NCBI GenBank assembly: GCA_051294905.1
Contig: CM119371.1
Span: 17,858,001 to 17,922,000, forward strand
DNA: 64,000 nt
Direction: 5' to 3'
Origin: Botryllus schlosseri
Lineage: Eukaryota
In this document: positions 9,606-62,512 of the stretch, piece by piece
How positions within the stretch are numbered: position 1 is the first letter of the stretch
How the letters are laid out: each line of letters starts with the position of its first letter
The notes under the pieces: model-generated
Told to the model about the DNA's origin: nothing
Database searches by the model: none
The model's input: only the letters and a program-made list of their open reading frames with translations
Program-made: the position numbers and the translations under genes

Positions 9606-9870
9606 TCATTCGGCGACTATTCTGCCGTTGGTGTCCAAACGAAGATTCTTTTGTAGACAATCAGAATTCTCTTTTTCCGCCCATAACTTACGAACGGACA
9701 CTGACATTGGTCGCTTGGGTGGCCCTGTAATAGGGAAATCTGTTTTGTTAAGGTCCCGATATGGAACTTTGTATGCATCGTCAAGGCGTATTCCGTGCAG
9801 AAAACGGCATATTTGACAATGGTGATATCTTCTTTTATAATGCGGGTGGTGTCGCCTTTCGGTCCGCCAT
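9606..9870 (-). CDS. GT10 alpha-1,3/4-fucosyltransferase copy 1, last coding exon
   Basis: Acceptor ttttccag then (R)WRTERRHHPHYKRRYHHCQICRFLHGIRLDD...GRIVAE-TGA. The phase-2 join to the upstream exon rebuilds the GT10 YLQYFRWR motif, followed by the CxxC. Confidence 0.9.
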
Positions 9871-11334: not shown

Positions 11335-11844
11335 CTGAAATATTGCAGGTAAGCGGTGTCGTTGCGATCCAAGTAGTTCAAATGGTCAATCAGATGCTGC
11401 ATAGATGGAAAGTCTTCCACGAAAATGAATCCGCTGGCGGGGATATGTGCTTCGTATACCTCTTTAGTAGAGCCCCATACAACCGGTACGACTCCGGCTA
11501 TTAAGGCACGGAAAAACTTCTCCGTCACGTAGTCTTTACAATGATAGGAATTCTCGAATGCGAAATAGAATTTGTATTGCGATGTGTATTCTATCATTTC
11601 ATTTTTCATGTAGTCATTTCGAGAAACAGGTGTTTTCCCAAAGCATCGCCCGAATGCTTCCAGCTTCAAGCCCATTGTCAGCAATTTCTTGACATACGAA
11701 AGTCTGACCACGGCCCCCGGAGTCAGATTGCAATTTGAAATTGCGATCAACGCTAGATGCTTCTTATTCGCCAGTGGCTTCTCCAATTCATTTCCGGTTT
11801 CAACTGTTGCATTTCCGTAACTCAATTGAAAATCCGAGTCTCGT
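11335..11844 (-). CDS. GT10 fucosyltransferase copy 1, catalytic-domain exon
   Basis: Open 510-nt exon between cacag and gtgaaa. Contains the alpha-1,3-FucT motif YKFYFAFENSYHCKDYVTEKFFRALIAGVVPVVWG and LNYLDRNDTAYLQYF. Confidence 0.95.
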
Positions 11845-12477: not shown

Positions 12478-12594
12478 CGGTAGGTTAGTGACGCGTTGAA
12501 TCCAATTTGATCAGCCTGTTGTAGCCAGTTGTCCCTAGACATATACGTTGGTGCCTCTGCGCAACGCCATATCCAATATTGATTCGGATTCCGC
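12478..12594 (-). CDS. GT10 fucosyltransferase copy 1, exon RNPNQYWIWRCAEAP...FNASLTYR
   Basis: tttcag acceptor and gtagga donor. Splicing to 11844 rebuilds the conserved TYRRDSD motif. Confidence 0.92.
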
Positions 12595-13022: not shown

Positions 13023-13096
13023 TTCACTCGTGGAATATCTCGCAGGTTGGCTCGATCATAATGAATGATGACGACCTCAGTTCTGATGTCGCTTAT
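13023..13096 (-). CDS. GT10 fucosyltransferase copy 1, 74-nt exon ISDIRTEVVIIHYDRANLRDIPRVK
   Basis: ttgcag acceptor and gtgagt donor; phases 0/2 fit both neighbours. EVVIIH corresponds to the GT10 (D/A)VVFH motif. Confidence 0.8.
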
Positions 13097-13500
13097 CTGC
13101 AATCATATTGATATAATTGTATGTTGGCGTGCTCCTAACGACATAGTACAAGCGGACGTGGATAAGTAACAGTAGCAAAACTTCTGCCGGAAGGTTGCGT
13201 ATGTAGACCATAACTACGTGAGTGGCAAATAGGTTTAGTAACCAAATTTCCACCATGGCTTAATGTGCAAATGATGCCCCCTGCGCTTCCTGGTTGCAAA
13301 TGTTGCTTCAAAACCCATCCCAATTGGCGAAAACGAGTACCATACACAAATTCTTATAATGTAGATGTATACAAGGATTGTTTTTGCTGTAGTATTCATG
13401 TTATTTTTCGATTATACAATGGCCATTTACATAAGGCCCACATTCTTTGTCATGATTTCATAGCTGCCGACTCTTAGCGACAATAGCGACCCATTTTTAG

Positions 13501-14975: not shown

Positions 14976-16022
14976 ATTTGAGTTTGATATACCTCTGCTT
15001 TACGGTGTATATGTTGAAACGAAATGTTATTACCAAGTTTTATCTCGGAAGCGAAGAACTTCTACCTGCGCTACGCTTAGCCCCAGCTCATTAATGTACA
15101 ATGAAATCCAAAGGATCGAGGAAATGAATGAATACATGAATCTGTCAATCAATCAATAGATCAGGGGTGACCTATACCTGCGGCCGTAGAATGAAATTTA
15201 TACGGCCTTTGACACGTGGTTTAATCAGCATGTGTTGGCGGCCGTAGATATGCAATTTGAATTTACTAATTGACTCCCTAATTTTTGAGAGATTTTAATT
15301 ATTCTTCAAATTTTCTTCGCGCTGCGTGCGAGTCAATGTGACTTCATTTTTCGATGTTAATATAGTAGCGCCCTTTGCAATCTGAGCCCCACTGTACAGA
15401 TGCGAACAGCATAGGTAAATGATGCCCCCCCTCCAGATAGAAATACACACTCGGAATCGTGTCCTCTCCACTATACCTACATTCCTGATGGTATGCCAAG
15501 AAATAACAGCACGAGACAAAGTGGTTAATAACCATTTGCCCAACAAAGATGTATCATCATTTATAGATTGCCTCAAATTTTCGAAAATACCCTCTCCATC
15601 AACTCTACACTGTAATTTTTTTCATGTCGTTGAAATCAGAAAAGACAACACTTTTTTCGTCAAAAAAGATCCCACGTAAAATGTCCTAGATGATGTCGAT
15701 TGTGCTTTATATTTAGGTGTTTCCATATTTAGGTGCTTCCGTATTTAGGTGTTTCCGATCTAGGTGATACCTCACTGCGGCCTGATATAGAATACTAAAT
15801 AATCTGGCGTACATGTCGACCTCCGTTCTGTCCTCGCAATAACACTAAAATCACCTGGCGTACTCGACAATCAAACTGTTTGAATCCCGCATGGGGCATC
15901 TTATTATAAACGGAATAATGAACGTGTATGCAAATAAACATACTGCACTAAAATAAATTGAAGGCAATAGGACATGCAGCATAAATCGTAGCCGAAATTT
16001 TCCAATTAGAATATGGCAGCCC

Positions 16023-16261
16023 TACCCGCATGGAATAAACCACATGCTAAGTCCAGCTTGGAAGAATTACTTAAACTTATTACAGAATTTGTTATTATGT
16101 TACTTAATTGAAAGTATAACTCACTAAACAAATGTAGCGAGTACCCGCATGGAAATAAACCACATGCTAAGTCCAGCTTGGAAAAATTACTTGAACTCAT
16201 TACAGAATTTGTTACTATGCTACTTAATTGAAAGTATAACTCACCAAACAAATGTAGCGAG
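16023..16261. repeat. Two tandem copies of an approximately 119-bp unit
   Basis: tacccgcatggaataaaccacatgctaagtccagcttgg...aacaaatgtagcgag repeated directly. Confidence 0.92.
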
Positions 16262-16364
16262 AAAATTGACCTTATACAGGATTTGTACCATGTAACGAAC
16301 TTGTAGTACTTGTGAAGTACTGCTCAAAAAACGAATGTAGCGAGAAATCCATTCTTAGAAAGTC

Positions 16365-19300
16365 TTATTCTGAAGCATATTGTTGAAATCTGAGCAAGAA
16401 ATCGGCCAATTCGGTAGACATACATTGAGCACTTTTGTCGCCTATTACGACATGTTGGACGAAAGCCAGAAGCTGAAAATCTTTCGGATACTTTAGGTCC
16501 CAGCATAATAGCATGCCATGATATTAATCAGCATATCAAAGACCGTATCATAGTCTTGACACAAAATTCTATGGCCATCAGGTAGAATCCAGCCCTGGAT
16601 CTTGCCATTCTAGTGCTTTGCGACACCAAATGTGGAGGCTGTGATCTTTTGCAGTGGATTCGAGCATCTTGAGCCTGAAATATAAGTATTTTTTTCAAAA
16701 ATTCAAACAATGCATATGACTGTCAACAACAGGGGTGACATCTCTACACCAGTAATTCACTAAGTTATCTAGACACGCCAGACAATGAGAAAAATTTCAC
16801 GCCCACTTACCGTAATGTCACAAAAGTTTATTGCATGGAACGTTATGACTTGCATGGAACGTTATGACTGTTACTGAGAAAATTCTCAAGAATAATATTC
16901 GGACTCTATGGAATTGTAGGTAAATGGCGAGAAGAGAGAAAACTTTTTGTTATCGACCACTGCTTTCCACCCCCTTCGTATGCTTTCATGCCCCTCAGTT
17001 CAAGAACCACTGCTGCACAGTCAGCTGCATGTATCAGCGATTGACATCATTATATAAACTTAGTTATAATCAAGTACCTGTTCCACTGACAATGCAGATA
17101 CTGTGGACTTCTTTCTAGAGTTCATACTGGTGTCGGTCTTCTTCAACTTGACTCTGCCATCGGCGAGTTGCGATTTTACTTTCAGCAGATTTTTCAGTTG
17201 ATCATTCACACCAAACGTTTGGAGAATTTCACTGAGAGGGATCCCTTTCTTTGTTAGCTGAGCACGCCGGTATCCGTACAATTGCTTGAAAAGGGACACG
17301 ATATTCTGCCATCTGCGGTACTCGTTGTCGAATTCCTTTTGCAGCTGACGAGTCGCTTCTCCAACAGTCAACTTGAATCCACCTGAATGTGTAAATATTA
17401 GTAGTGACACAATACTCAAGATGGCTTGGTGCTACCGAAAACAGGGTCTGGTCTAATTTCCTACCCACAACGCTGTAATGCCCATGAACAATGCCTGTCT
17501 ATACCCACAGTACAAACTACGCTGTAATTAAAATGGCGCACATTACCGGACTATTTCTATATACTCACAGTACAAACTATGCTGTAATTAAAATGGCGCA
17601 CACCACCAGACCACTTCTATATACGCACAGTACAAACTATGTTGTAATCAAACTGGCGCACACCACCAGACCACTTCTATATACGCACAGTACAAACTAT
17701 GTTGTAATTAAACTGGCGCACACCACCAGACCACTTCTATATACGCACAGTACAAACTATGTTGTAATTAAAGTGGCGCACATTACTGGACTTCTTCTAT
17801 ATACTCACAGTACAAACTATTTTGTAATTAAACTGTCGCACACCACCGGACTACTTCTATATATTCACAGTACAAACTAGGTTGTAATTAAACTGGCGCA
17901 CACCACCAGACCACTTCTATATACGCACAGTACAAACTATGTTGTAATTAAACTGGCGCACACCACCAGACCACTTCTATATACGCACAATACAAATAAT
18001 GTTGTAATTAAACTGGCGCACACCACCAGACCACTTCTATATACGCACAGTACAAATTATGTTGTAATCAAACTGGCGCACACCACCAGACCACTTCTAT
18101 ATACGCACAGTACAAACTATGTTGTAATTAAATTGGCGCACACCACCAGACCACTTCCACATACGCACAGTACAAACTATGTTGTAATTAAACTGGCGCA
18201 CACCACCAGACCACTTCTATATACGCACAGTACAAACTATGTTGTAATTAAACGGGCGCACATTACCGGACTACTTCTATATACTCACATTACAAACTAC
18301 ATTGAAATTAACCCGGCACAAATCACCGGACTACTTCTATATACTCACAGTACAAACTACATTGAAATTGAGCCAGCGCACATCACCGGACTACTTCTAT
18401 ATACTTACAGTACAAACTACGTTATAATTAAACCGGCGCACATCACCGGACTACTTCTATATACTCACAGTACAAACTATGTACTTCTATACCCACATTA
18501 CAAACTATTTAGTAATTTACCGGACACTGCTGACACGGAAGCGTTTTTGAAGGAAGAAGGACGTTGTCTGAGAAGTCTGAGCGCTCTCAATTTCTGAGAC
18601 AGTTTCGTGTTGATATTTTTCTAGAAAAAAATGAGATGATCAGTGCAAATGAATTTAGACCAATGAGACCAGTTTACTTTACCCAGGGGGGGTTCTGTAA
18701 GGTAGATCCTAAGCACGGATACTTTTCCACAAGTGCCTTCCCAAAACTTTCGATACGATTGTTTGGTCATGTCACCATTGTTCAGGATTTGATTTGCACA
18801 CTGCTCCACTACGAGGTTGATGATTTCATAAGCTGTACGTTGCTTCACGCTAGTTCAACTTTCACACTGAATTCCGGCAAGGGCATCGGAGGATCGAGGT
18901 GCCCCATACTGCATGGTGGCTGTTAATTGATGAAAATATGAGTTGGTGTCCTACTAGAATAATGTGGATATTTACCATATCATCCAGACAGCTAAATTCA
19001 TTGCAAAATTTGATCAAATACTTACTGGCATAGCTGCTTCTGAAGAAGCTAAATCACAACGGACTGACGGCTCTACGGGCACGGTGTTATCTAAATCGTC
19101 ATTGACTGACGGCTCTACCGGCATGGTGGTATCTAAATCCTCATCGAACGACGCTTCTCCCGGCAAGGTGGTATCCGATTCAGCAATCGAGGCTGATTCA
19201 TCGGACATATTGTTTTGACCTTGATTTGTTGACAACTTTTTCCATAACTGAAACAACAAGACTTAGTTGCATGAACACATTTCAGTTGATTAGCTTCTTA

Positions 19301-19476
19301 CTTCTTGCAGATTCAACAGATGGCGCGTCACACCAATGGTGAATATTTGCCAAAAGTCTTTATTACAAGCTTGCACGTATAAATCAGACTTGGATGGTCC
19401 TTGTGACGTTTCAAGAAATTTTTTGTAATCCGATCTGAACTCCCAACGAACAGGCACAGCCAACATGATTTTTCAT
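16365..19476 (-). pseudogene. Six-exon SAMD3-like (transposon-associated) gene relic; exons 19476-19302, 19247-19026, 18919-18683, 18620-18521, 17382-17078, 16674-16365
   Basis: GT-AG junctions in compatible phases. Motifs PLPEFS, GKALVEKYPCL...W|KNINTKLSQKLR, LQKE...YRRAQL...LSEIL and MACYYAWDLKYPKDFQLLAFVQH. Several single-base frameshifts. Confidence 0.7.
17497..18507. repeat. 60-bp minisatellite, about 16-17 copies
   Basis: Unit gttgtaattaaactggcgcacaccaccagaccacttctatatacgcacagtacaaactat, in register line after line. Confidence 0.98.
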
Positions 19477-19622
19477 CTGACATTTACGACACTCTAATAT
19501 AATTATTTCTAGACAAAATGAAAAGAAAAACATTCTAGATCACAATTCGTACCACCATTGAACCCCCTACAAGATGCATCGATCACAACTGCTCACTAAA
19601 TTGTGTAGATTACCATCGCTAG

Positions 19623-19958
19623 TAGGGCTGGGCAAAATCGAGTGCCATAGTGCATCGATGGATCACGACTCATGCTTTAAGTTGAGTATTCTAGGACCAC
19701 TCAGTCATTATGACAACATAACAGAATGTAAATTGACAAGATTCAAAGCTTTTTACTATGTTTGGTACGCTGCAATACGGCCAATCAATGCTAACACAGT
19801 AGAAATAAGTATCACAACTTCAATTCCCGTTGAAAAATTGATACTCATGGCGACGAGCGTCTCATACTTCAAAATATCGTCTTTTACCAATACACTCAAA
19901 TCAGTTGAATTGATACTCATTCAAAATCCGCGTACTATAATCATTGTGCCCAGCCCTA
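19623..19958. mobile_element. hAT MITE (tagggctgggca termini)
   Basis: 12-bp TIRs; perfect TSD atcgctag. Confidence 0.9.
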
Positions 19959-19989
19959 ATCGCTAGTTACGCAATGTTTAAAGTTTGAA

Positions 19990-20560
19990 GCGAAGAGCTA
20001 TATATATAACCAACGACTGCCGAACGAGCAGACGCGAACGAAACGATGAAGCTCTCGGCGACGGCCGACGCCGGTCGGGGCACGGCTTTCTGTGCTAGTG
20101 TTCGTCGTGACCCGGGCCGTGGCGCCGACCCCGGAAGTGGCCGACCGATCCGAATCGGTTCGCGGGGCGGAACGTGTTCGCGCCGCGCTGACCGGCGCGC
20201 AAGTTCCGGATCCGCGCGAGACGTCGCGGCTGCGTAAACGACCGGTTTTCGACGGCGGGGCGGCTCGATCGAGCTGTGCAAAATTAACACTTCTACTTCC
20301 TAAAGCCGCGTTTCGCGGAGCTGGCAAGACCCGCAGCCCCATCTGACCCGCGCTCGTCTGAGGGGCAGTTCAGACCTGTCAGGCGATGACCGCAGCCCGG
20401 TTCTGCCACGTCGCCAACCAGTACTACAACGCGGCAAAAGCCCATTGATCGGCCCTCGCTCGCCACGGGGGAGAGCGATAGCCTGAGCGTCGAGCGCCGC
20501 GCTGGAAATTGGGACTCTAAATTGAAAGAGCGATAAGCTTCTAGAAACGACGGGTCATAA
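19990..20560. promoter_or_regulatory. GC/CpG-rich island, candidate promoter of the SAMD3-like gene
   Basis: Abrupt rise in GC and CpG; ETS-like ccggaagt motif; lies just 5' of the minus-strand gene. Function is inferred. Confidence 0.4.
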
Positions 20561-21317
20561 GTAAACGACAATGTGCATTGGGCTTCGAGTCGTGTCGAGT
20601 GTTCGATTATCAATGAGAACGGCGTGGAAAGTTGAAATGTATACAAATTATACATGTAGAGTGGCCACAGCGAATAAAATGTCAGTTTCGCATCGGATTA
20701 AATGTAATTGCGACAGGACAGGTATATTTTCGAGCGTACCCGTTTAATTGCGCATTTTTTATGATAATTCTGGGATGATCCACCGATCAAGGATAATCCC
20801 GGAATTATCAAAGATTTATCAAAGAAAAATTGAAATCACTCCACTTCTACGGCTTAGAATTCAAAATGCTTGGAATTCAAAATTTTCATGCTGTACTAAA
20901 TCCGCGAATATTGGTTAGAATGAATTCGAATCTGGTGTAGGTCGTTTTATCGATTTAATCACGTAACCAGCAAGATTCAGAAATAAAGGTTATTTTTCAA
21001 CAGTCCTATTGCGCATCCATTGTCACTGTTGCCGCGGCTCGACCACGACTTCACAGATATCTCATATACAATGACGCACCCCGCTTCGTATGCCGCAACG
21101 CGACCAAACGAGGTTTTAAAACTAACACATTGGGAAATGACTTCGAAACTATAAATTAACTCTTAGCGACAGGATCGTCTAATTTCAGTAAGCTAAGAAA
21201 TCATGTATCACTACACGATTAGAATCTTGAAAATTGTTACTCTGTTCATTTTTGAGTGTCCGTGCCATTGTGTTCGCCCGGCCCCAAACTACGAGCCCGC
21301 TCGCGGACGGCGGAAAC

Positions 21318-21845
21318 CAATGATGAGCATCGGAGCGGAGTCGGAGTGGATTCGGAGCGGATTCGGAGCGGAGTTTTGCCGATTTCGCGACAGTCGGAGC
21401 GGAGTCGGAGTTTACTACAGATATTTTTTCGGAGAATTTCGGAGTATTGTAACTTTTTTCTCCGATATAGTTGGATAGCTCTGACCAAAATACCCTATTG
21501 ATTATGATTACAAACCAAAACACAGACAGTTGACACCTTGTAAAGCTGTAATATGACGGGTAACATGCAAAAATGATTACCAAGTGCATAAAAATCAGCC
21601 ATCTGCACTGCAATTGGGGACTGGAGAGTAAACAATACTATGAGGCCAACCATATTATCAAATATACCATGTTGTACCATGTGTACCAAGTACCATGGTT
21701 GCCACTGTTTCGGATACTCGACGAGATTCATCGGAGTATCTCGGAGTCTGGGATTGAGCTCTTCGGAGTCGGAGGGAGTTTTCCTAATACACAAAAGTTG
21801 TCGGAGGGATTCGGAGTCTCGAAAAGCACTATCCGCTCATCACTG
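21318..21845. mobile_element. hAT MITE with TCGGAG repeats
   Basis: caatgatgagc / gctcatcactg termini; TSD gcggaaac/gcgggaac. Confidence 0.8.
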
Positions 21846-22079
21846 GCGGGAACCGCGGGATCACGCGAGAGACCTCCAGCGGATGACGCGAGCGTGCGAA
21901 CTCGAATTGCCGCGTATCGTCTCCCGCTCTCGAGGGCGTCGTGGCCTAATGGGTAAGAGCACTGTGCTTGCCTCGCCGCGCTGCCGCCGGGGCCCGAATC
22001 CCACCAAAGGCGAAAATGAAGAGCGAAAAAGTATACGGTATGGTTACGCCCTGCCATCTAGGATGATGATGAAGAAGTG

Positions 22080-23034
22080 AAAAGGGGCTTGTGGTAACCA
22101 AAGAATGTAGAAGGACAAGATGTGCGAGGTCATTGTTGCGTCACGCCACTGTTACGCAGCGGCATCCATTTTGGTCTCAAAAGACCACAAAATCAGCCTG
22201 AACCTATGCGTGCGGCTGTAGTTTTCGGTCATATTGGCAGTGATATTTATGGGATTACGCTCGCAACTGGGATATTGGACATAGAAACCAAGGTGAATTT
22301 ATGTATTTTCGTTGTCTGCTGATCGTTTTTATTTCAGATCACCCCGGACTACCACAGCAAAATTCCTTTCTGGGCTGCATCGAATTGTAGGCCTACATAT
22401 GGCGATATATTTAGAATCTCAACCTGAAGGCTACTTCTGCGAATTGTATCGTGTTGATGCAGGAAATGGAGCTAGTAAGATTCAATATTGCCGATAGTAA
22501 CTTTCCGCATAGATACTGTAACAGCATAGATCACCCACTACGATATGAAGTCACCCATCTTACAATTTGCAGCTACAAGGCCGGTGTCAGGAGAAAGATG
22601 AAGAAATTGCGCGTTATTATTATGATTAAAAGTTTATAGAGTCGTCCTTATCACCTGTTTAGGTCTTGTGTGCCACGGAATACAGTGCAAAGAAATTCAG
22701 GGAGAAAGACGAAGAAATTGCGCGGTTGAAATCGCTGGTAATGCGAAATCATTGTGAAATTAATTGTAGCATTTTGACGATACAAATACACAATGAAAAC
22801 CATACAAGATACCCAAATGTGATTAATAGCGGAATTGCACAATTTATGATCGTTTTGGAACTTGGATGTAAGCTCGGATAACAAGGAACATATGGATGAG
22901 GATAGGAAGGTTTTTTCAACAAGGATCAGATTCAGGCTTTGAAAAGAGAAGGGCAGGCCTCTGGATGCAGATGGGCCGGTGATACATTTATGTCAGCACT
23001 GAAAATCAGGTTTTCATTTGGAAAGCATGGGTAG
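22080..23034 (+). pseudogene. P-element/THAP9-like transposase N-terminal relic
   Basis: 22912-23034 reads FFNKDQIQALKREGQASGCRWAGDTFMSALKIRFSFGKHG-stop (P-transposase DQI..L...W.....ALK.RF..G..GY pattern). Upstream are coiled-coil KDEEIAR pieces and weak THAP-like CRR/MCEV traces. Confidence 0.6.
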
Positions 23035-23837
23035 TTTTTGAGCTCCAACAGTGCTTCTATATCGAATGTAAACATTCGATGGTGTAGATATCTGAGTAAA
23101 TCCTCTGATACCACGAACATTTTTATTAATTTTTTAATATGTTCTCGGCAAAAAATCACAAACAAAATATGCGACGGAATCCGACCCGAATACGCAGAAA
23201 TACAACAAAAACAACCGCCGATACCCCTGTCCGCCCGCGACAAACGCGACTACACGCGCCCCAATACGGACTGGGACGGGGCTCGTTCACTTGAGGACCA
23301 AAACGTCATTTTCGCCATAAGACTATAGTGAATTTGGTCCGAAAGTGAACGAGCCCCGTTAGTTCGCCAATTAAATCTGCGGACCTGGACGCATCGACAT
23401 TACAAATTTCGTTGAATTTCGGTTCATTGTTCATAAAGAAAAGTTCGTATTTCTGGTAAAATTACGTAAATGTCGATTTGATGGGTTATTTATGGTATTG
23501 AGGTGCGTATTTTGACTAAATCTGTGTGAAAACGTTGATTTTATTTCAATAGGTGAAAACTAGGTGTCTTGACGGTCCGGGAGTTGAGACGTGTTTTAGG
23601 TTTTATGTGTTATTGTTTCTGTTCAGTTCTTATGTTCGGTTTTGCGTGCCACTCGGTTCGCAGTTTCGAGGTGTTTTGAATGTCATGTTCTCAGTGTCAA
23701 TTTAACGCTCAAAATTAATGATTAGATTAGTATTAAGGTAATGTCGTAAAATGTACTTACTTTTCAGTTTTGATTTTGTGGTTGTAAGGAGTATTAACTG
23801 ACGACAAATTTATTCCACTCACTCAGGTCTCAGGGTA

Positions 23838-24317
23838 CACTACAAAAAAAAATCAGACAAATTTGGTCTCAATGTCTCAAATCGATTTTTTACAAAAAAA
23901 AAGTCTTAAAGACCAATTAGTCTTAAAGACCAATTAGTCTTACCAAGAACTTTATGTCTCAAAAGTAAGCCAGAAATTGATCGAAATTGGTAGCAGTGCC
24001 TTGAGGGCATCCTTTTCAGTGTTAGGGGTCTGAGCGGAGGAGGGGAAGGATGAGAGAGACCACAAATTGCAGTGTTGAGATGATCCTGTACTAAGTTTAC
24101 AAGGTATTCACTAGATATAGTTATCAAGGTACATGCCACTTACTACTCACATATAATATTCAGATCAATATATATATGGTTGTCTGAGTCGAAAATAGCA
24201 TTTATGGTGAGTGGGTAAAATGAGACCATCAGTGAGACTGAAATTGTTGAAAATGAGACCAAATCATCCTCATTTCTTAAATTTGAGACCAAATTTGTCT
24301 AATTTTTTTTTGTAGTG
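23838..24317. mobile_element. CACTA-type MITE
   Basis: About 35-bp TIRs CACTACAAAAAAAAAT(c/t)AGACAAATTTGGTCTCAA, TA on both flanks, internal GAGACC repeats. Confidence 0.9.
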
Positions 24318-25031
24318 TAGCTATAGCTGTTATAACAGCCTGGCATATTACTGCTATGCGTGAGCTATATACAGATTAGGATCGTACTTTATATCAGATA
24401 TCTATATAACAGGGTACATTAATGCTAAAGCTATTTATCTACCTTCCAATTTCTTGATATGGCGCGATGCAACACCATTACTCACCAAGAAAGTTTTCAA
24501 ATCTGCAGCACAATCAGTTCCTGTCTTGTTCCCAGCACGTTGAATCGCAAAAGAGCGAGACGGGCAACACAGAACTTACGCAAAGCGGAAAAAAAGAGAA
24601 ATTTTCTCTATAGCGCCTAGCTTTTTTCGCGGCCATGCGCTGAAAGCTCTCCTTTGTGATGCCTCAAGCGGATAATTTCGCGATTCTGGGATCTCAAATT
24701 GACAGTGTACCGGTGAATCTGATCACGTGGGCTGAGAAAGGATAAATGTATTACAGTGATATGTTAAACTACTGATATTAATGACGAAATTCATTACTGA
24801 ATCTGAAAAAAAAATTTGCGTTGCGCGTGAACATAACATAATGACATACTATGACCACTCGCGATTTCGGCGCGTATAGTAAGTCGATGTCATTGAATAG
24901 TTTAGTCCGACGATTTCTACATTTCGGGGGTGGAATAAAATAACAGACAAGCACGTGTGATTAGTTCAACGAGCACGTATGCGGCGATAATGCTAGAGCT
25001 CACATAGTTCTGTGTCCCCTGGTATACTCAC

Positions 25032-25059
25032 CCACTTGTCTGCATTGCGTACAAGACAT
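25032..25059 (-). pseudogene. GT10 fucosyltransferase copy 1, 3' half of the transposon-interrupted exon (CLVRNADKW)
   Basis: Ends at a strong gtgagt donor in phase 0, matching exon 13096. Abuts the left TIR of the 25060-31422 element. Confidence 0.75.
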
Positions 25060-27685
25060 CCCAGTAAACACAGTACAGACCAAAGATGTAGAAAGCCGAG
25101 CCCGATATAGTAGATATTAGATCTCGGCAGGTCGTAGAAAGGGGGATTTTGTGTCGACTCAATTCAATGTCTTTTCCATGTCCTTCAATAATGTAAATAT
25201 TATGCAGATGCTACAGCCTTTAAACATGGTGAGAAGAATGTAGATCCTACATTAAAAGAACATCCTGATATAATAACCTGTTTTCTACCACTGGGCATAA
25301 CCTGATCACGGCTGCGTACACACACACACACCACATTATCTACTACATATTAATCACATTTGCGGTAATTTAATTCAAAACCAATTGGCAAGTAAATAAT
25401 GCCGGTGTAAAAATGAAACGAACGAAATTACTTGTAGGGCCAAGTAGCAATGAATGAAACTATGAGAACAGTCAGTAATCAGAAGGTTTCATTGTCTGAT
25501 GATGATAATCCCTCTGGCGTTTTCTTTTCAACACCCTGTAGAAATAAAATGAAAATGACGATTATTAGCTAAGACATTCGTACTGCGAAAATGGCAGAGG
25601 TAGCGAGTAACGAATGACTCCTACATTTTTTTCACCCATACTTACTAAAATGGATTTGATTCTGGACTATTTCCACTCAAGTTTTCAAGTTTTTATTATT
25701 ATATTTTTTATTATTATATGACTAGAGAACTGACTTCAATCGCCACTTCTACTTGATTATCAAGATCAACGATGACTACTTCAGCAATCTTTGAAAACAG
25801 CCACTAACACAAAAAGAATTCTTGACTAAAATTTCTTCACATTCTGTCAAAAATGATCAATTCAACAATCCAAATGAATCAGTTATTTGGCAGCTAGTTG
25901 GAGAGATATATACTCAAGTCTAGAAAGTGGAATGATACTCTGCCTGGAAAGCTGAAGACCTAACAATATTGTGTACAGAGAACAAAACATTTGAGTGGCG
26001 GCACTGGTATAGACGTTAACAAATTATTAGAATTGACAGTAAGATAACCAGCAAGACATTAAAATGAGAATTAGTGCAGTTTCTTAGGCTGTAGTGATAC
26101 TCAGCCAGTAATTGACCTAGCAGAGAGCAAAACGTTGTAAAAAAGCGAGCGAAACCTCCGACAAATGATACGATAAAACATTAGAATCGACAGTCTTACT
26201 AGAAGCAGAATAACAATCATGAGGGGTTAGAGAACAGAAGCCCGGGAAGTGACCATCAGAAATTACTGCATACTGGCCGAACAAATCCATGACCACTAAC
26301 AAATGGTCTTTTAATAGTCAATATTGATACCAAATGACACCACCCCTATTTCACCGCAACATTTAGCAAATACAGCGCTGGCGTCAACCTTATAAAGCGC
26401 TAACCAAACGCCCATTAGTTTTCCCACCTACTACTTCGCGCTTCGCGGATGGAAATACGCATTAAAGCGAATGGACGCGAATTGTCACACTCTTGCTATT
26501 TCTGCTCCCTTTTTCTCTTCCTTCCTCTTGAGGAGAGAAACAGTCGACCGCGTTTACGGATCGTGAATTCCCGGCTTAAGGGTGATTCTTCCCCCAATGA
26601 TCAGCACCTTGAAAATTGAGAACAATGTTGTTGCAAAATGCATGACAATTTGAAAGTTACATCATTCTAATTATTCCAGTTATGGCCGTGAATCGTTGCA
26701 AGTGCGGTAACCATAAGAATTATTACTATACTTCAACTACAAATACAATATATTGTATAAAATAATTACTAATTCTTTTACGTTGATCGAGTTCCAAATG
26801 GATGAAATATGTCAAAGAATTTGCTAAATTTTTTTGTATAATTTGACAGATTCCGAAATCTTCTCAAAGTGCACCTTTCAAAATTTTGATATCAAGACTC
26901 CCAACATTTTACAATTCGAAGTTGGATGGCTTGACCAATACAAGCGAACAGTTTGTATCGCAATTGACGATTATGTAGAGAACGTTGCGAGACATGTGAG
27001 TAGGCCTACCCTAAAACGTTTCTCTGACATGGACATTAGGGCTCTTAAAAAATGACTTTTTGTTCTCAAATCGTTCTTGCTACTTGATAAAATTGTTAGG
27101 TCACCTAATTCAAGCCTACACACTAAATTTGGTTCAATTCCAACCAGTAGCCGCATTGCTACAGGAAAAGAAAGTTTCTATTTATTATATAAAAATAAAT
27201 GGAAAAAATTTGAAAATTTTCTGTTCACCCCATGAAAGTGTTAGGTTATGTATAGAAACGATGTTCATCAAATTTGGTTCGATTCAAACAAGTGGAAGCG
27301 GAGTTATTGCCATCGAAAAATTCGGATTTTAATAAAATAGTATTTACGGTGGCACCACTATAATAAATAATTAAATAATTGTGTCACGCTGTCATACTGT
27401 TTTACGCAACCGTTGTTATGCACTGCATTGTTGCTGTGTTCTGGCTCCATTGATGGTATTTCTAAATTCGACATTAATGCGTCATAATTCTCCATCTGGT
27501 TTTGAATTCAACTCTGTTTTGCTTCCTTTATAGTGCCGGTAGCTCTTTAATAGGCACGCGAAAAGTTCTTCGGGTTTCAATAACGTTTATCATGAAGGTA
27601 CTTTTAAAGCAGTATTAAAATTTTGTACCACCAACCAGTTATTTAATTACTATTTATCTTCAAAGTAAATGCTCATTTCATGAAG

Positions 27686-28173
27686 CAGGGTTGTAAGACT
27701 CGAGTCAGGATTTTCTGTTGACTCGACTTGACTCAGGTCATCTTCTCAAAAGTACGGAAATGACTCGACTCATTGCGCATGACTTGAGACTCCGACGGCC
27801 AAGACCGACATTTCATTATTATTTCAAAGAATAGTACAGCAAATCGCTATTGGGATTTCGTCTATTGATACTGGTATTTGAAAATGCGGCCAGAAACTGC
27901 TAAAAGTAAGGAAAATTCGTATATTATAAATGCGACCCACTCGATATCACAAAAAATATATAAAAAGTTGGTTTAACAAGACTTAAATTGGAAACTGAGC
28001 AGCTAACACAATGACTCTGGCTCGAGTCATAATACCATAACTCGGACTCGGCCCTCTGCTCGCTGACTTGGACTCGGACTTGACTCGGTGGTGAATTGAA
28101 AATGACTCGAGTCAAAACTATAAAAGTGAGATCGACTTGCGACTCGGAGCCTTGTGACTTGGTTACAACCCTG
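27686..28173. mobile_element. hAT MITE with GACTC/GAGTC repeats
   Basis: cagggttgtaa / ttacaaccctg TIRs; TSD tcatgaag/gcatgaag. Confidence 0.85.
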
Positions 28174-28257
28174 GCATGAAGCCTCAATAGTTACAAGAGT
28201 GGGGTGACTAGACAAAGAACACAGTGACATTTGCAGCATATCATGAATGTCTCTTAC

Positions 28258-28740
28258 TATATGTGATCTTGTTCAAATGGAGGTTGATGAAAGCGTATTT
28301 CCCATTCTTTCCGACTCTGCTATAATTTCACCAGACTGGCAACCTTCTTCATGATGCTTTTTGCTGACTGACCAATATTGTCGCCGCCAACGGTACGAGT
28401 GCAAATGTCTGATATGTCAATATAGGAACAGAATTAGTTGACTGTTCATGACCGAGCACGTTCAGAGTTGCATCTCAAAGATGCTAAAATAAGCCTAAAT
28501 ATAATCCAAGCAATACGATCGTCCACTTTGACTGACTGAATTTCTAAAAACAAATAAACATAACACCTTGATAGCTTCCACATCTTACGTTTATATATAC
28601 CGTCTGCTATCGGCAAGCATTTGAAAATAACAAAACAGATTCAACATACCACATCTCTTGCAAAGGCTTTCATTCAATATGTCATCAAACTTCTTTAAAT
28701 CCTCCTTTGTGGTGAGTGGCTTCGTTTTATCATATACAAT
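28258..28740 (-). pseudogene. Two spliced exons of a DUF4806-like transposon accessory gene (28740-28650, 28408-28258), frameshifted
   Basis: IVYDKTKPLTTKEDLKKFDDILNE... joined to ...TVGGDNIGQSAKSIMKKVA / NYSRVGKNGKYAFINLHLNKI. Canonical GT-AG with matching phase. Family assignment is from recalled motif pattern. Confidence 0.6.
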
Positions 28741-28849
28741 CTATGGCGGAATAAAAGTTTCGGATAAGTTCTAAAACGAACACAATTTTCCACACAAAAG
28801 TCAATTGCCACACGAAATGCCAAATGCTACGGTCCCATTTTACAAGGTA

Positions 28850-29045
28850 TCGCGAGGTAACGTAGTGGTACCCTCCATTATAGCTAAACACCAATGAATT
28901 GCGGGTTCGAGCCTGACACGTCGACTCCATAATTCCTACCGAAGTGTTGGCCGTTTATCTAGGCTCCTCCTCGCCATCTGATCCGCATAGCCATGTCTTA
29001 AAAAGCCTAGGAGTGGGCCGTGCTATAAGTGGGCAGATGGTTGCC
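28850..29045 (+). mobile_element. tRNA-derived SINE family 1
   Basis: B box gggttcgagcc and shared body. Confidence 0.8.
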
Positions 29046-29154
29046 GATGAACTCGGCACTTGGTGAATTCGGCCCTCGGGAAATTTTGTATTGAAGTGTA
29101 TTAACAGCTATTAATATGAATTATTAAACAAATAATAGTATTATCAAGTGATTC

Positions 29155-29764
29155 GTCAATCTTGTAAGGAGGTCAGGGCATCCGTAGATCACGCGGTCAC
29201 GACGTGATTAGATCACGGATTGCGTAGCCGCGGGAAATAACGCAGCGCTCATATACCGACCACGCGCGGTCTGCTTGGAATCGATGGCGTGAGTGACGGG
29301 CCTGTGTCGTGTAAGTTTTGAGAAGATGGATCTTGGCGTTGTATGTGAGATCGAAAATGTGGAAGATAAAGCGGCGCTTCTTCGTTTATCGATCAAGACA
29401 AGCCAGTGTTCCTCATCAACAAATGTTTCGCATGATCACGTCAAAATAAATTATTTTTTGCCTTTGGAGAGACGATTCCACTCTGGGGTTAGGGTGTCTC
29501 GATAACAGGGTTGAAGGATCCCAAGATTACGAGATCTACCGCGAGCCACGACACGTTTAAATTTCCTTTTTGATAGGCCTACTGTTAGTGTTCATTCATA
29601 TCAAATGCATTTCTAATGCGAAGGTGTTCTAGTGCCAATTCCACCAAGGGCCGAGTTCACCAAGTGAAGAGCGTCGCGTTATTTCCCGCGATTACGCAAT
29701 CTGTGATCTAATCATGCCGTGACTGTGTGATCTACGCATGCCCTGACCCCCGTACAACATTGAC
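29155..29764. mobile_element. Foldback-type element with about 95-bp imperfect inverted arms
   Basis: 29155-29250 is the approximate reverse complement of 29668-29764. Confidence 0.75.
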
Positions 29765-31422
29765 AACCACTCAAAGTGCCAAGTTCACCGGTAAACATTC
29801 CAGTAACCAATCATGGCGACCGGTACCGCTACCAGATCTACCACGGCCGAATTCACCAAGTGCCGAGTTTGTGCGGCCGAATTCACTAAGTGCCGAGTTC
29901 ACTGGTAATCGGGCGGATACGGAATGATAATAATAAGAACCGGCCTGGTGTAAAATGACCAGTGTAGTCGAACCACCACCATGAACACCACAAACAAACA
30001 AACAAACATCTAACATGGAAAAGAAATTACCTTTACAGCCTTTGACAAACACAGTTACCATATAAATCAGCAATTTAGGTCTTATTCGAAAGCAGAATAA
30101 CAACTGTTTTAGCGGACATATCAAATCAAATGTTGGAAAGTTCATGTAAATTAGCATAAAATATTATCTTACTGTGACCATATTCTATCAATATGGTCTG
30201 GCTAGCCAAATTCTCTGGGCCAACATAAACAAGCTGCGTTTGGTTTCAACGATTAATAATCTTGTCACTGGATTCGAGGCATAATGGCACTCAAATATCA
30301 AATTTTGCTTCATTAATCAACATCAAGTTGAAAATGTCCATTCTTGCACCAACTTTTATAAAATCACGAATCAGTGTTCTACAGGTATGTATCTATAAGA
30401 CTTATATACCTAGAAAATTCAAGCATAAATATTATGATATACCGTAGGTATAGATACCGGTAATTCAGATGTTTGAAGCGACTTTGACAACTAGATAATT
30501 ATAGTGGTCTAATTTCACTAAATTAGAGCCAAATGCCAGCAATATAATTGTAATCTAATTCGGAAAAAACGGTTTAGCTCTAATTCTAGCCTGGAAAAGC
30601 TGAAACTTTTCTATAGTTGTCTACACCTGTTTTGCAGAAAGTCAAACAGCTCTAGGCGTCATATACTACAGGCAATTCGAAATACCCCATAAGCTATATG
30701 CTACTGCGTATATACCTTTAACCCGCTACCTCAGTCAGTCACAATTCCTATATATTTACCATACAGAAAGAGCGAACTATGCCTGGCTGCGACCTGTTGC
30801 GCGTCAAATCTTCGTCCTGCGCGATGACGTAAAATTTGAATCGCCGAAATATTCTAGAAGTCACGCATGGATAATCATATTCCTAAACGTCCAACATCTC
30901 ACTTATTTAGTTATTCTCTGAATAAAACTATTAGCCATACTCGTTGAACATGCGAGATTACCGAAAGAGCGAATATATATATAATGAAGATCATATATAT
31001 CAGAAGAAAACAAAACTGTTCGACCTTAGAGCAACAACACGAATATACAACACCGGTGACATCCTCACGTAATAAAACGAAGGGAGAACATTGTTTTCTA
31101 ATGGATAGAACGAAGCTACCGCATGAGATCGAACAAAACCGGATGGGAATTCATCGTGATTGAATGTACCGACAAAGTCATCCTTTCTACGTATTTTAGT
31201 CATACCAGCGAGAGATAGAAAATTTGCATTATTAGGTTAACTACCGGATATAACGAAGCCTAATGCATGAGATGGAACAACACCGAGTATGAATTTATTC
31301 TGATTGAATATAACCACACGACCATCCTACTACGTATTTTAGACATTCCCTCGACACTTAGAAAATCAGAACCTAATCGAGATGATCCCGGATGATCCTT
31401 TTACGGTTTTGTGTTTGCTGGG

Positions 31423-31458
31423 ATCCCCCACATTCTCTGGGCAGATCGACCTCTGGAT
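31423..31458 (-). pseudogene. GT10 fucosyltransferase copy 1, 5' half of the interrupted exon (PEVDLPRECGG)
   Basis: cattag acceptor. Removing 25060-31422 and one AT copy gives an open 62-nt exon PEVDLPRECGGCLVRNADKW. Confidence 0.75.
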
Positions 31459-31749
31459 CTAATGAATACCATGCAAGTATTATCTAAATAGAGTTCAAAA
31501 TGTATTAGAAGTTTCCACTTTCCTATACCTATATGCTTCCTAGTAATTGTAGCCAGTCATGATCCATTGATGTAGAATTTTATACGAGCCTATAGAAGTA
31601 AAATATGCGTCATTCGTTAATGAGCATGCAGAGATGTGGCAATACTGACACCAGGATTGACTTGACTGCTGCTCTTTTAGATTAATTAGGTCTACTGTTA
31701 CATCTTATAATGCCTACTAACGTTGGTTTGAATATGTGAGATTGGTTAG

Positions 31750-32725
31750 TAGGGATGGTGTGAACCTCTGAAAGGTTCAGGTTCGTGTGAACGCGAACCT
31801 TTTTGAAAGGTTCTGTGTGAACACGAACGTGAACCTCATGACGTCACGTGACGTCATATTGCTAATTCCAACCCTATCTTTCAATGAAGTGATAGCCCAT
31901 CTTAATTTACACGATAGCTAGCGACGACTCGGGCCACATGAAAGTTCATGTTGGCGTTTTAAACGTCGCTAAATTTATCAACTAAAGCAATCAAAGGATA
32001 TAATACTCCTATAAAATCAATATCTTCCGTCACTTTTCCAACAATTTCGACGAGGACTTACCAGGGAATATAAGCTTACGCCTTAACGGTCTAGGCCTGA
32101 CCGGACAATGTATTCGGCGTCCTAGTATAGCTACATTGATATTGAGCAGAGTGTCAAACGGGTTTCGATACTTGCTACCGATATTACGCCATTAACAAGT
32201 TATGCAGCAGTAGCCAACACCTCAATCGCAAGGATTTGGTTTTAATGGTGCAGTAAAGATATGAAGTCAAGATTGACCCCCTACGCCAGCTAGATTTTTT
32301 GCACCAGAAAACGTTATCAATCACATTGATTGATAGAATAAGCACGATTCGCTGACTACGTATTTCGCTCGTGATGTTGTGTGATTGCGGGTCAAACTCA
32401 CAGCAGAGAGTCACTAAATATTCACAAACGAAAAGCTGGATATTTCGAGCAAACTTTTGTAACAAAGCAAGTAAAACTTTTGAGTTTGTCAAGGTGCATG
32501 CTCGTTCAGTGTTAAATATTAATCCTGCCAGAGCCATACATAGACGGCTCGCAGTTGAAATACAATAAATATGAACCAAAGATGCTATAATGAAGTGAAA
32601 ATTGTAATATATGAAAAAGGTTCACAGTGCAGAACCTACCAAGGTTCTGTTGTGAACGCGAACCTCTAAATTTCCGAGGTTCACACACAGAACGCGAACG
32701 TGAACCTCACGTTCACACCATCCTA
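31750..32725. mobile_element. hAT MITE, tagggatggtgtgaac family
   Basis: TIRs, GTGAAC repeats, TSD ttggttag/ttggttac. Relatives at 35772-37214, about 4728 and about 38895. Confidence 0.85.
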
Positions 32726-33124
32726 TTGGTTACTAAACCTGGAAATCGGTTTCAGCAACAACATGCAAATATAAATCAGTGATTCCGAATCGTTCTCGCT
32801 TTAACGAACCATAGTTGGCTGCGAGTCTCAAAATTTATATGAAGACCGAAGAAAAATATTTAGGGTTACCATACGTCCTCTTTTAAGAGGATTTGTCCAG
32901 TCTTTTTTGACTTTTTTAAAAGTGTCCTCGAGGGACGCTTAAATGTTCTCTTTTTGAGAATTCTGGTGGCATATAGGGTAATATTCGACTGAGATACAGT
33001 AAATCAGCTCTGAAGTAACGCTCGGGCGGCAATTTCGGGAGCTGGGGCGGAAAGTTGACTTCTTTTTAGTCAACCGACCAGGAAGTGCAGAAAAGTTCCC
33101 ATTTTGTCAGGATTTCTCTCAGGT

Positions 33125-33578
33125 TGTTTGCGATTGCGCATGTTCTTTTCTATCCTTCATTTGAGGTCGGTTTTAGAGGAATCAGTTAGTCTTTCAACTG
33201 TCCTTATTTGTATTCCATGTTTCTACTAATTGTATTTGTGAGATTTTAGTGATTTGATTGTTTGATTACTGTTTTAAACTGTCTTTTTTCGCCAGTATAA
33301 ATTGCCCTCGCTACCGTTGTCTCGTCCTCCTTTCCATCGAGCAACGGACGAGCAAGCACTATTGCGAATCTCGCTTGCATCAGCATTTTTGTACTTCTAA
33401 CAACGGAATCTCAAGTCTACATTTTTCTTCGACTGGGGTCATTTGGTTGGATTAAATAGAATACAAGACTGATACGCAAGGTTTGCCTATAGTCCACGGT
33501 AGCAGATTTCAGTGCAGCAGACAGGATTCGACGCCTGGTAAATCGGCAATCATTAGATTGGAGTGTCGCGTCGAAACA
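33125..33578. mobile_element. Probable solo LTR (BEL/Pao-like) inserted in a MITE
   Basis: TGTTT...AAACA termini, near-TSD caggt/cgggt; interrupts a MITE that is contiguous in its sister copies. Confidence 0.6.
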
Positions 33579-34383
33579 CGGGTATTGCAAGTCTGGAAAT
33601 TTTTAAAAAGTGTGCTTTTTTCAGGTTTCCAAAATATGGTAACCCTACGAATATGCCTCGCGTCGATATTTTTATAACAAGCTGGCACCGTATCCTGCGA
33701 CCAAATCCCTTTTTGCGTTCAATTCTAGCGAATGAACAACGTAATTCGCCTTTAGCCCGTCTACTTCGCCTTGTTGAGCATAATTAATCAGTCTACCAAC
33801 ACGACGCTAGAATGTAATTTCGCAATAAGGGTCCAAACAAAATCAGGGTCTGAAGAGTCAGTCATGAAATCGTATGGTTTCATCAATACAGGGTGAATAT
33901 GCTAAATCACCGGCGCTCCAAACTAGCTTCCAAATGCACGACAGGACTTGTATCGTTGATTTGAATTATGACATAATACTGGTGAAAAGAATTCTCAGAA
34001 CCTGACACAGGATTGTATTGCAGCGGCAAGGTAAAATGGCGTCAAATTGACTTTCTGATTTCATTTGTAATAACTGTTCGATAAGTGCGAGGCACGAGGA
34101 TAGTAGTAAATGCCATTATTACAGATTCACATTTGCAAGCTACTGTAACGCAAATATTTGCCCCTTCCAGGGTCGTTAAAGTATGGACCGCAAAGGGTAT
34201 AATTTTAGGTCGAAACGGTGCCAGAGCTATCAGTTGATATGTATGTAATATCTGTTGAATTTATTGCAGAAAATCCTGCAGTAGTTTTTTCAAATCTAAG
34301 GTCACTGTGTTGGGTACTATAGCCAATAAGCGAGACACACAGAAAATATGGCTTTATCATGAGAATTCATGATATTGATAAGA

Positions 34384-34838
34384 TTTGTCCGACTGTTTTT
34401 TTCTGGAAAACATGGTCGAAGACCATTGGGATGAACTAGTCTAGGGACTAGGGATGTGCAACGAGCGTGTTCAGGTCTATGAGACTCATCCATTTCGAGG
34501 CCAGCCCCTTTTTCGTCGGCTCAAATGAACACGTAAAGTTTTGGCCAACAAACTGCTGATAAAATGCGGTGCCAAAACATAAGCGTCGACAAAACCTTGG
34601 TCAGAAAATGACAGATGCTGGATGGCCATCGCATGGATATGCTCCGTTGTCGGGACGGAATAGTCCCGTTCTTGCAATCTGAGTCGACAGTAGTACAACT
34701 GCGACACGCAGGGGAATTTAATTCACTTTAATTTGAAATCGCGTGCGCCAGACATATGTTGTAAACCTATGTTGAATAAAATTGTGGGTGCGCGTTCTGT
34801 ATGTCATACATATCCGTAAAATCGTAGCAGACTACTGT
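34384..34838 (+). repeat. Diverged third copy of the unclassified interspersed repeat also at about 7015-7462 and 49891-57600
   Basis: Shared blocks ttgtccgactgttt, gaagacc.ttgggatg, tttcgaggccagccc, gtcata.at..ccgt.aaat.gtagca. Confidence 0.65.
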
Positions 34839-34869
34839 AGTATTAAAGAGCTTCTTGGAGGTACAGAAC

Positions 34870-35601
34870 TTCAATATACAATTAAATAGTATATTCATAT
34901 TGAAATGAACCCGAATATTTTCGGCTGACACTCGTCAGGGGTAATCGTCAGCAACTAGTAGAGAATTAGAAAGAACATTGTATATCAACAATCGTATCAC
35001 AAAATATGACGTCACCAGCATGAAATTTCGAATGAGAGAACGTTCAATGTACTATTTTTAGGTGATACACGAACTCCTTTTGTTGACAGAGTTTTTTTTG
35101 GTTGGTGTATTTTGATAAAAGTTGATTCCAAGGCACACAAATGGAATTGTGAACGACCTCGACCTACGATTCGAAATCGGTCGTCTCGATAATTATTCGC
35201 ACAAATCGGATTATCCAACAGATGTTTGCCGATGGCAGAATTAATGGCCTTTGATCGATCAGCATCAATCTTAAGTGGATGAGTTAAGGGTGAGCTTTTC
35301 ACATCGCGTCCACCGCACGAACAATAAAAGATGTTTATATCCATCTACCTTGGATTGGCCCCATTTCCACCCGCTTTGAAAAACAATTGATTTCTGCTGT
35401 CGGTAAATGTTACGATACAGTCAAAACCAATGTGATTTTTACAACAACACAACTGCTCCCTTCAACACGCAAAGACGTGCTTCCTGCACTTCAACAAAGT
35501 AATGTAGTGTACGAATATAGGTGCCACTGTGATTGTGGCTACGTGGGAAGAACGTCAAGACATCTGCAGGACCGCATAAACCAACATGTCCCCAGATTTA
35601 T
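34870..35601 (-). mobile_element. Penelope-like retroelement fragment (GIY-YIG region plus 3' end) with inverted 5' part
   Basis: Plus strand 35342-35601: HLPWIGPISTRFEKQ...SNVVYEYRCHCDCGYVGRTSRHLQDRINQHVP. Minus strand below about 35340: SAIGKHLLDN...LCALESTFIKIHQP. cagaac on both flanks. Confidence 0.88.
34909..34942 (-). ncRNA. Minimal type I hammerhead ribozyme motif in the Penelope 3' region
   Basis: ACCC-CUGACGA-GUGUCAGCC-GAAA-AUAU-UC-GGGU: stem I ACCC/GGGU, complete core, palindromic AAUAUU stem III; stem II is weak. Confidence 0.7.
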
Positions 35602-35771
35602 CAGAACACGTGCGTCACGCGACGCAATTTGTTGCACATCTGAACAAATGAATGTTTTATTTTCATCTCTTTTTGTATAACAATTTTCGGTTAGTTTGTG
35701 CGAATGAAATTTAATTTTAGAAAAAAGTGCGAATGAAGCTCAAAGAGGTTGAAAAGCACTTCTATACAGTA

Positions 35772-62247: not shown

Positions 62248-62512
62248 TCATTCGGCGACTATTCTGCCGTTGGGGTCCAAACGAAGATTATTTTGCAGAC
62301 AATCAGAATTATCTTTTTCCGCCCATAACTTACGAACGGACACTGACATTGGTCGCTTGGGTGGCCCTGTGATAGGGAAATCTGTTTTGTTGAGGTCCCG
62401 ATATGAAACTTTGTATGCATCGTCAAGGCGAATTCCGTGCAGAAAACGGCATATTTGACAATGGTGATATCTTCTCTTATAATGCGGGTGGTGTCGCCTT
62501 TCGGTCCGCCAT
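62248..62512 (-). CDS. GT10 fucosyltransferase copy 2, last coding exon
   Basis: Same length (265 nt), acceptor and stop as 9606-9870. Open frame; 9 substitutions by manual comparison. Confidence 0.9.

Follow-up and report, generated by a model that had tools for sequence, protein, structure and literature searches.

The window analysed here, 64,000 nucleotides of Botryllus schlosseri contig CM119371.1 (assembly GCA_051294905.1, positions 17,858,001 to 17,922,000), contains a fucosyltransferase gene in which one coding exon is split by a transposon and the downstream exons remain open. Is this gene dead, or does it still give rise to a product? A reading made from the sequence alone had left both answers standing, proposing either a pseudogene that had barely decayed or a gene rescued by exon skipping or cryptic splicing. 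We found that the gene (copy 1) is a member of an array formed by four tandem copies of six-exon GT10 genes (i.e., alpha-1,3/4-fucosyltransferase-type), and we conclude, with a probability of about 0.9, that it is a young pseudogene, broken twice over, in a GT10 array that evolves by birth and death.

All exons of copy 1 lie on the minus strand. Its four downstream exons, coding exon 3 (13023..13096, 74 nt), exon 4 (12478..12594, 117 nt), exon 5 (11335..11844, 510 nt) and exon 6 (9606..9870, 265 nt including the stop), have AG/GT boundaries and, as the sequence-only reading had stated, neither stops nor frameshifts, and every splice site of exons 2–6 is intact. Exon 4 gives a weak PF17039 match, below the cut-off. 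Exon 5, the largest of the four, encodes the PF00852 catalytic C-terminal domain (E = 5.6e-42) with an intact alpha3-FucT motif that is identical in all four copies; it has 52 matches in the genome and is 38–51% identical to named homologues. In the close homologue P0001, PF17039 spans residues 69–178; the best match of P0001 among solved structures is human FUT9 (PDB 8d0o, E = 5e-32), and the aligned region of FUT9 starts within the exon-2 segment.

Copies 2 and 4 are intact gene models of 421 aa. The last coding exon of copy 2 lies at 62248..62512 on the minus strand, and its remaining exons are at or past the window edge. TGA codons flagged in copies 2 and 4 proved to lie outside the coding sequence, and both models are open. 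Copies 2 and 4 share the type II membrane layout of GT10 alpha-1,3/4-fucosyltransferases (PF17039 plus PF00852), such as human FUT9 and the FUT3/5/6/9-like proteins of Styela clava and Ciona, and the array genes have the same domains and alpha3-FucT motif. Unlike those proteins, the array genes form a lineage-specific, intron-containing and tandemly expanded subfamily; copy 1 differs further in that it has no exon 1 and a broken exon 2. Given that copy 3 also carries a nonsense codon, which terminates it prematurely, loss within the array is recurrent.

The interruption itself is as the sequence-only reading described it, an insertion of about 6.4 kb. The element occupies 6,363 bp (25060..31422) and splits coding exon 2 into a 5′ part (31423..31483) and a 3′ part (25032..25059), the latter followed by a GT donor at 25031. 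Its terminal inverted repeats of 13 bp, at 25060..25072 on the plus strand and 31410..31422 on the minus strand, agree at 12 of 13 bases, and AT duplications flank them at 25058..25059 and 31423..31424. An empty site, which had been proposed as the check, is present in all three tandem paralogues: each has an uninterrupted exon with a single AT, and the matches to the left and right flanks overlap by exactly 2 bases. The exon had been reconstructed as 62 nt, and this part needs correction. The AG on which that length depended (31459-31460) occurs in copy 1 only, the paralogues having GG, and with 62 nt the exon would not match the phase of the first exon, which is phase 0. The exon instead measures 87 nt (31483-31423 plus 25057-25032), with a conserved acceptor at 31484-31485 that is common to all four copies.

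The 13-mer end motif has 776 matches in the genome, compared to 13 for a reversed control, which would amount to about 390 family members if the motifs pair up. Of 10 other, hand-picked copies, 7 are flanked by a 2-bp duplication, as are both of two sister-subfamily copies (9/12 in all); the remaining 3 of the 10 have no matching 2-bp duplication, and a 3-bp duplication was found at none of the 10. The duplicated dinucleotides across copies are AT, TA, CA, TT and GG. The longest stop-free frame of the window element is 130 aa, the longest open frames among element copies are 108–156 aa and none is common to different copies, and three element frames had no Pfam match at the cut-off. With its inverted ends, its target duplication and empty site, and dispersed copies that share the same boundaries and encode no transposase, the element is a non-autonomous cut-and-paste (TIR) DNA transposon, a member of a young, high-copy family.

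The element had been judged old on account of the diverged insertions nested within it. Its interior is indeed a patchwork of repeats 70–86% similar to other places, including the inverted arms of an inner cargo (29147..29771, 86% identical) and a subterminal direct repeat pair (31103..31366, about 120 bp, 76% identical). However, among 26 candidates scored, six other copies, on four other contigs, match all 6,363 bases at 96–98% with the identical patchwork end to end. Thus, the inner repeats, the inverted arms among them, are inherited cargo and were already in the mobilized template, rather than being a sign of aging in place. In alignments with two siblings, the window copy shows 1.42 and 1.31% substitutions, and the divergence from siblings is even along the element, the "nested" parts included. 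Over its 6,363 bases the element shows 40 changes private to it (0.6%), near the 0.5% of the gene. The two copies of the target duplication match perfectly, and the insertion is younger than the split from copy 3. The insertion is thus recent, and the sibling comparisons refute an old element that gathered its insertions in place.

To which superfamily the element belongs is less clear. It had been called EnSpm-like, and the 2-bp target duplication of the family fits the variable 2–3 bp duplications of EnSpm/CACTA elements; the termini do not, as they are CCC..GGG rather than 5′-CAC..GTG-3′. CCC ends do occur in certain animal EnSpm families. A further EnSpm/CACTA character is a DDE transposase bearing both C(2)C and H(3–4)H motifs, encoded either by the element itself or by a partner whose ends match. 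We found no transposase in the window element, nor in a 5.66-kb form that shares its ends. That form, considered as a possible autonomous partner, turned out to be a 92%-identical, non-coding sister. A PF02992 profile search of the genome returned no match, as did the equally blank control searches. For the wider clade, PMC12730594 gives CA..TG termini "in most cases," which allows exceptions, and PMC4455052 assigns elements by a match of positions 1–11 to a Repbase family that is already classified and has an equal target-duplication length. Zebrafish EnSpm-N49/N49B (PMC13189230) and ENS1_Cis of Ciona savignyi (PMC6004678) are non-autonomous CMC-EnSpm/CACTA elements that resemble the window element in that they have short inverted repeats and a 2-bp duplication, lack coding capacity, have been active recently and have mutated host genes by insertion. 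They differ in ending in CAC, and the zebrafish insertion is 2.5 kb, compared to 6.4 kb with fossil repeat cargo here. EnSpm membership is thus plausible but unproven, and it is possible, though not likely, that this CCC-ended family of 5.7–6.4 kb is moved by an undescribed transposase lineage. Literature searches returned nothing on the fucosyltransferase locus or the element family.

Exon 2 is not the only part of copy 1 that is damaged. Relative to copy 3, copy 1 has a 1,507-bp deletion with GG microhomology at its breakpoint (34030..34031), which removed coding exon 1 (213 nt, 71 aa), comprising the ATG, signal anchor and stem. The flanks of exon 1 are joined directly in copy 1 and are collinear, exon 1 matches in the genome are confined to copies 2, 3 and 4, and a scan of 13097-49000 for a replacement frame with a start and hydrophobic segment found none, while the same scan recovered exon 1 in copy 2. 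Of the features expected of a functional gene, copy 1 has neither the start codon, signal anchor and stem nor a complete N-terminal PF17039 domain. Reading through from exon 2 into the element meets a stop after 16 codons. A second copy-1-specific insertion (15608..24707; 9,100 bp with CACTG ends and a TA duplication) lies in the intron between exons 2 and 3, where copy 3 is empty. In this assembly, copy 1 carries two independent disabling lesions, the deletion of exon 1 and the transposon in exon 2.

The openness of the remaining exons does not conflict with this conclusion. Private to copy 1 are five codon changes in 350 codons, for which the probability of no stop is about 0.76, so stop-free exons are expected. 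Three of the five are synonymous and two non-synonymous, slightly more conservative than neutral (P = 0.09), which counts against the pseudogene, as do the intact splice sites and catalytic motif. The pairwise dN/dS of copy 1 (0.25–0.33) is similar to that of the intact copies, but mostly reflects shared history. Copies 1 and 3 differ by 3% in exons and by 2.5–6.3% in seven non-coding blocks (dS = 0.063), and copy 1 is a mosaic of two neighbors. Thus, the earlier description of a barely decayed pseudogene was right as to the pseudogene, and the paradox it implied disappears with a recent insertion.

Since the first coding exon is also lost and intact neighbors remain, copy 1 is best regarded as an ordinary young pseudogene. 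The array would have expanded by unequal crossover with sequence exchange among its copies. Copy 1, being redundant, probably lost its function recently, through two lesions that may have come in either order, and would then have collected insertions freely. The element was presumably moved in trans, by cut-and-paste, by a transposase encoded elsewhere; the remaining exons would be clean because only about five substitutions accumulated there, and the enzyme is probably supplied by copies 2 and 4. Birth-and-death evolution with transposon-disrupted pseudogenes is known from tandem gene arrays. With its intact and broken near-identical neighbors, sequence exchange and recent lesions, the present array shows no substantive difference from such arrays.

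A functional product of copy 1, whether through omission of the broken exon or through cryptic splice sites within the element, is very unlikely. Exon 2 is phase 0-0, so that skipping would preserve the frame, an in-frame AG is present inside the element end at 25158, exons 3–6 are open and their private changes lean synonymous. However, exon 1, from which splicing would have to start, is missing, and the AG lies in a purine-rich context. The first in-frame ATG in exons 3–6 is preceded by two out-of-frame ATGs and would give 279 aa, with the signal anchor and most of the N-terminal domain missing. A related and similarly improbable suggestion is that an upstream promoter or spliced-leader trans-splicing, which is known in ascidians, feeds the acceptor at 13096, and that exons 3–6 yield an anchor-less GT10 fragment of that length, with the GDP-fucose-binding domain and a non-Golgi role, e.g., as a nucleotide-sugar sink or regulator; if true, this would explain the slightly conservative private changes. 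Four of the 24 listed sequencing runs were compared with 24600-34400, a stretch that excludes 13096. In one raw RNA run, no joint or loose end was found at the exon halves among the matches listed, where repeat-derived records dominate, and 98% of the compared RNA reads extend into unlike sequence.

The run contigs also bear on fixation of the lesions. A contig of run X9 departs from the window sequence at the deletion breakpoint (34031), another is without the 1-kb insertion that follows 31740, in a contig of run X7 the fit starts at 31423, preceded by 70 letters that do not lead into the element, and none of the matches listed shows the element-gene junction. Together with the recent age of the lesions, this would be consistent with copy 1 being a segregating null allele, other individuals having an intact copy 1 and thus a variable number of working fucosyltransferases. 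Such a reading is compatible with the young pseudogene, from which it departs solely on the question of fixation. But the run contigs have the copy-3 letter at six positions that distinguish the window from copy 3, so they may derive from paralogues, and we regard segregation as possible and somewhat doubtful. Tandem arrays in polymorphic animals are error-prone in assembly, and no listed run contained half of the sampled words of 11200-13200, which might suggest that copy 1 or its lesions result from haplotype duplication or a mis-join. The divergence of copies 1 and 3, the mosaic structure of copy 1, the clean target duplications at both insertions and the collinear deletion flanks all argue against such an artefact, which we consider very unlikely.

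The young, doubly broken pseudogene that we favor is a clean case of a gene that died recently within an expanded fucosyltransferase array of ascidian type, in which two of the four tandem copies are broken, and in itself has little importance beyond annotation. It also illustrates that diverged repeats nested within an element date the family template, not the insertion, and the element family, being young, can serve well as a marker in population studies. Should the lesions segregate, differences among individuals in their cell-surface glycans could have their origin in this array.

The gene under study (copy 1) lies on the minus strand of the window, which is G000:C1:17858001-17922000 of the 495-Mb assembly, and its 510-nt catalytic exon matches PF00852 (E=5.6e-42). 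Genome-wide, this exon yielded 52 matches among the 54 candidates scored, and the named homologues are ascidian (Styela, Ciona, Clavelina), which makes an ascidian host probable. Three of the 52 matches are copies 2-4, which lie in tandem past the window edge and are 91-97% identical to copy 1 in this exon. When modelled with an 87-nt exon 2, copies 2 and 4 each have six exons and an uninterrupted frame for a 421-aa type II membrane protein. Two older GT10 copies are found farther along, on the strand opposite to the tandem array (loci L042-L044, G000:C1 about 18070000-18099000, plus strand); one contains stops and one is apparently open, and in the same region a last exon has been duplicated with a frameshift.

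The sequence-only reading had proposed that a transposon splits a fucosyltransferase exon, and this is borne out. A 13-bp inverted repeat (one mismatch) bounds the element at 25060 and 31422, with an AT beside each end, and the left and right flanks, searched separately, match copies 2, 3 and 4 at abutting places with a 2-base overlap; in the alignment of these copies the exon is uninterrupted and has a single AT. The boundaries proposed for a 62-nt AG/GT exon have to be revised. Only copy 1 has the AG at 31459-31460, through a synonymous change, while an acceptor 25 bases farther upstream is common to all four copies and gives an exon 2 of 87 nt in phase 0-0. This exon starts with IILAW and matches the segment after the stem of P0001, a homologue of full length.

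Copy 1 has also lost its first coding exon. This 213-nt exon, encoding the ATG, hydrophobic anchor and stem, is present in copies 2, 3 and 4; it is absent from the window, and a genome search matched only those three copies. In copy 1 its flanks are fused at 34030/34031 with GG microhomology, leaving the region 1,507 bases shorter than its counterpart in copy 3, with which copy 2 agrees at the left breakpoint. A scan of 13097-49000 found no replacement start with a hydrophobic stretch, and the identical scan recovered exon 1 of copy 2. An acceptor-like TTTYGCAG, conserved in copies 2-4, precedes the exon-1 ATG by 19 nt (about 2145 in locus L028), which suggests a 5' exon without coding sequence or a site of trans-splicing.

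The end motif of the element has 776 matches in the genome, versus 13 for a reversed control. Among ten other copies, hand-picked from paired end matches, seven have a 2-bp flank duplication and none a 3-bp one; the remaining three have flanks AA/TT, TT/TA and TC/CC. For the left end the best 40 of 299 candidates, and for the right end the best 40 of 310, are 98-100% identical (self included), values that lean high because they come from top scorers. When 26 candidates were scored over the full element, six other copies covered all 6,363 bases at 96-98%, and global alignment of two of the best siblings with the window copy gave 90/6,335 and 83/6,316 differing bases, spread evenly along the length. 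Copy 1 differs from the empty-site copy 3 by 2.5-6.3% across seven non-coding blocks. These comparisons show a young element, not the old one with nested, diverged insertions that had been proposed: other full-length copies share the inner repeats, which, given the near-identity and even divergence of the siblings, are cargo of the family's template. The longest open frames of the element copies are 108-156 aa and differ from copy to copy, and the three frames tested had no Pfam match at cut-off; on these grounds the element lacks a transposase. A 5.66-kb sister subfamily (L067 and L068) is 92% identical to the element and 98.9% identical between its two copies, both with matching 2-bp flanks; it carries a 680-bp near-palindromic cargo, and its spacing recurs in many genome-wide end-motif pairs.

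In mode of action the element resembles non-autonomous animal CMC-EnSpm transposons. In zebrafish, an EnSpm-N49/N49B hybrid that mutates ctnnb2 has inverted repeats of 15 bp and a duplication of 2 bp (PMC13189230); ENS1_Cis of Ciona savignyi likewise has a 2-bp duplication, and its ends are CAC (PMC6004678). Repbase classifies such elements by terminal match (PMC4455052). The CMC-EnSpm clade is defined by transposase motifs and has CA..TG ends "in most cases" (PMC12730594), unlike the CCC ends found here. With its 2-bp duplication and CCC ends, the element is a candidate member only. Our literature search, covering main-text passages, listed nothing on the copy 1 locus or the element family.

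Copy 1 contains two further insertions that are missing in copy 3, one of 1 kb and one of 9,100 bp (15608-24707) that has CACTG ends and is flanked by a TA duplication. The latter does hold nested inserts, because in other copies its outer parts, at 97-100% identity, are directly adjacent. Inside it are a 60-bp minisatellite (17500-18482) and, within about 20003-24320, a 485-bp unit (23836-24320) bounded by inverted CACTA-type ends of its own. Several other loci carry this unit as a direct repeat flanking a 3.5-4 kb core, like a compound transposon. An intact-looking LINE (51619-56803; ORF1 359 aa; ORF2 1,256 aa with endonuclease and reverse transcriptase) lies downstream of copy 2, and pieces of a Penelope-like fragment (34843-35680; weak GIY-YIG match, E=0.011) recur at 98-99% identity in an intron of copy 4.

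Four of 24 listed runs were compared over 24600-34400. Among the rows shown, an X9 contig diverges from the window at 34031, the exon-1 deletion breakpoint, another contig is without the 1-kb insertion, and one from X7 begins fitting at 31423 with 70 letters preceding. These contigs fit an unbroken gene, yet may derive from paralogues because they carry copy-3 letters at six diagnostic sites. No RNA data set containing the gene was listed. The RNA run compared over this interval gave mostly repeats.

The sequence-only reading had left copy 1 as either a barely decayed pseudogene or a gene still productive through exon skipping or cryptic splicing. Counting against a pseudogene are pairwise dN/dS values of 0.25-0.33 and a tally of private changes with 3 synonymous against 2 non-synonymous (neutral P=0.09), which we read as a probable mark of shared functional history. 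Exons 3-6 are free of stops because only 5/350 codons changed privately; with about 5% of point changes making a stop, the probability of none is about 0.76. The private divergence of the element, at most 40/6,363 bases versus two siblings, is of the same order. Reading through exon 2 meets a stop 16 codons into the element, and skipping to exon 3 leaves the first in-frame ATG in exon 4, after two out-of-frame ATGs, for a 279-aa product without the anchor and most of the N-terminal domain. With exon 1 gone and such a remnant left, a functional product is very unlikely; the loss of exon 1, as a second lesion, settles the case, and copy 1 is an ordinary young pseudogene.

The comparisons establish a tandem array with intact neighbours, two lesions and a young non-coding element. 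The array would have grown by unequal crossover, making copy 1 redundant; copy 1 would then have been lost recently, with the lesions in either order, and a transposase encoded elsewhere would have mobilised the element in trans. We give this account as a whole a probability of roughly 0.9. Copy 3 (L031, G000:C1 about 17969189) is probably dead too, because CG has become TG where exon 4 ends, which creates a premature TGA, formed solely by splicing, at the exon 4/5 junction. Exons 3-5 pair copies 1 and 3 at 22 sites and exon 6 pairs copies 1 and 2 at 9, with zero conflicting sites within either block, which indicates that copies 1-4 exchanged sequence and have a mosaic ancestry. Such exchange could also refresh a dead copy.
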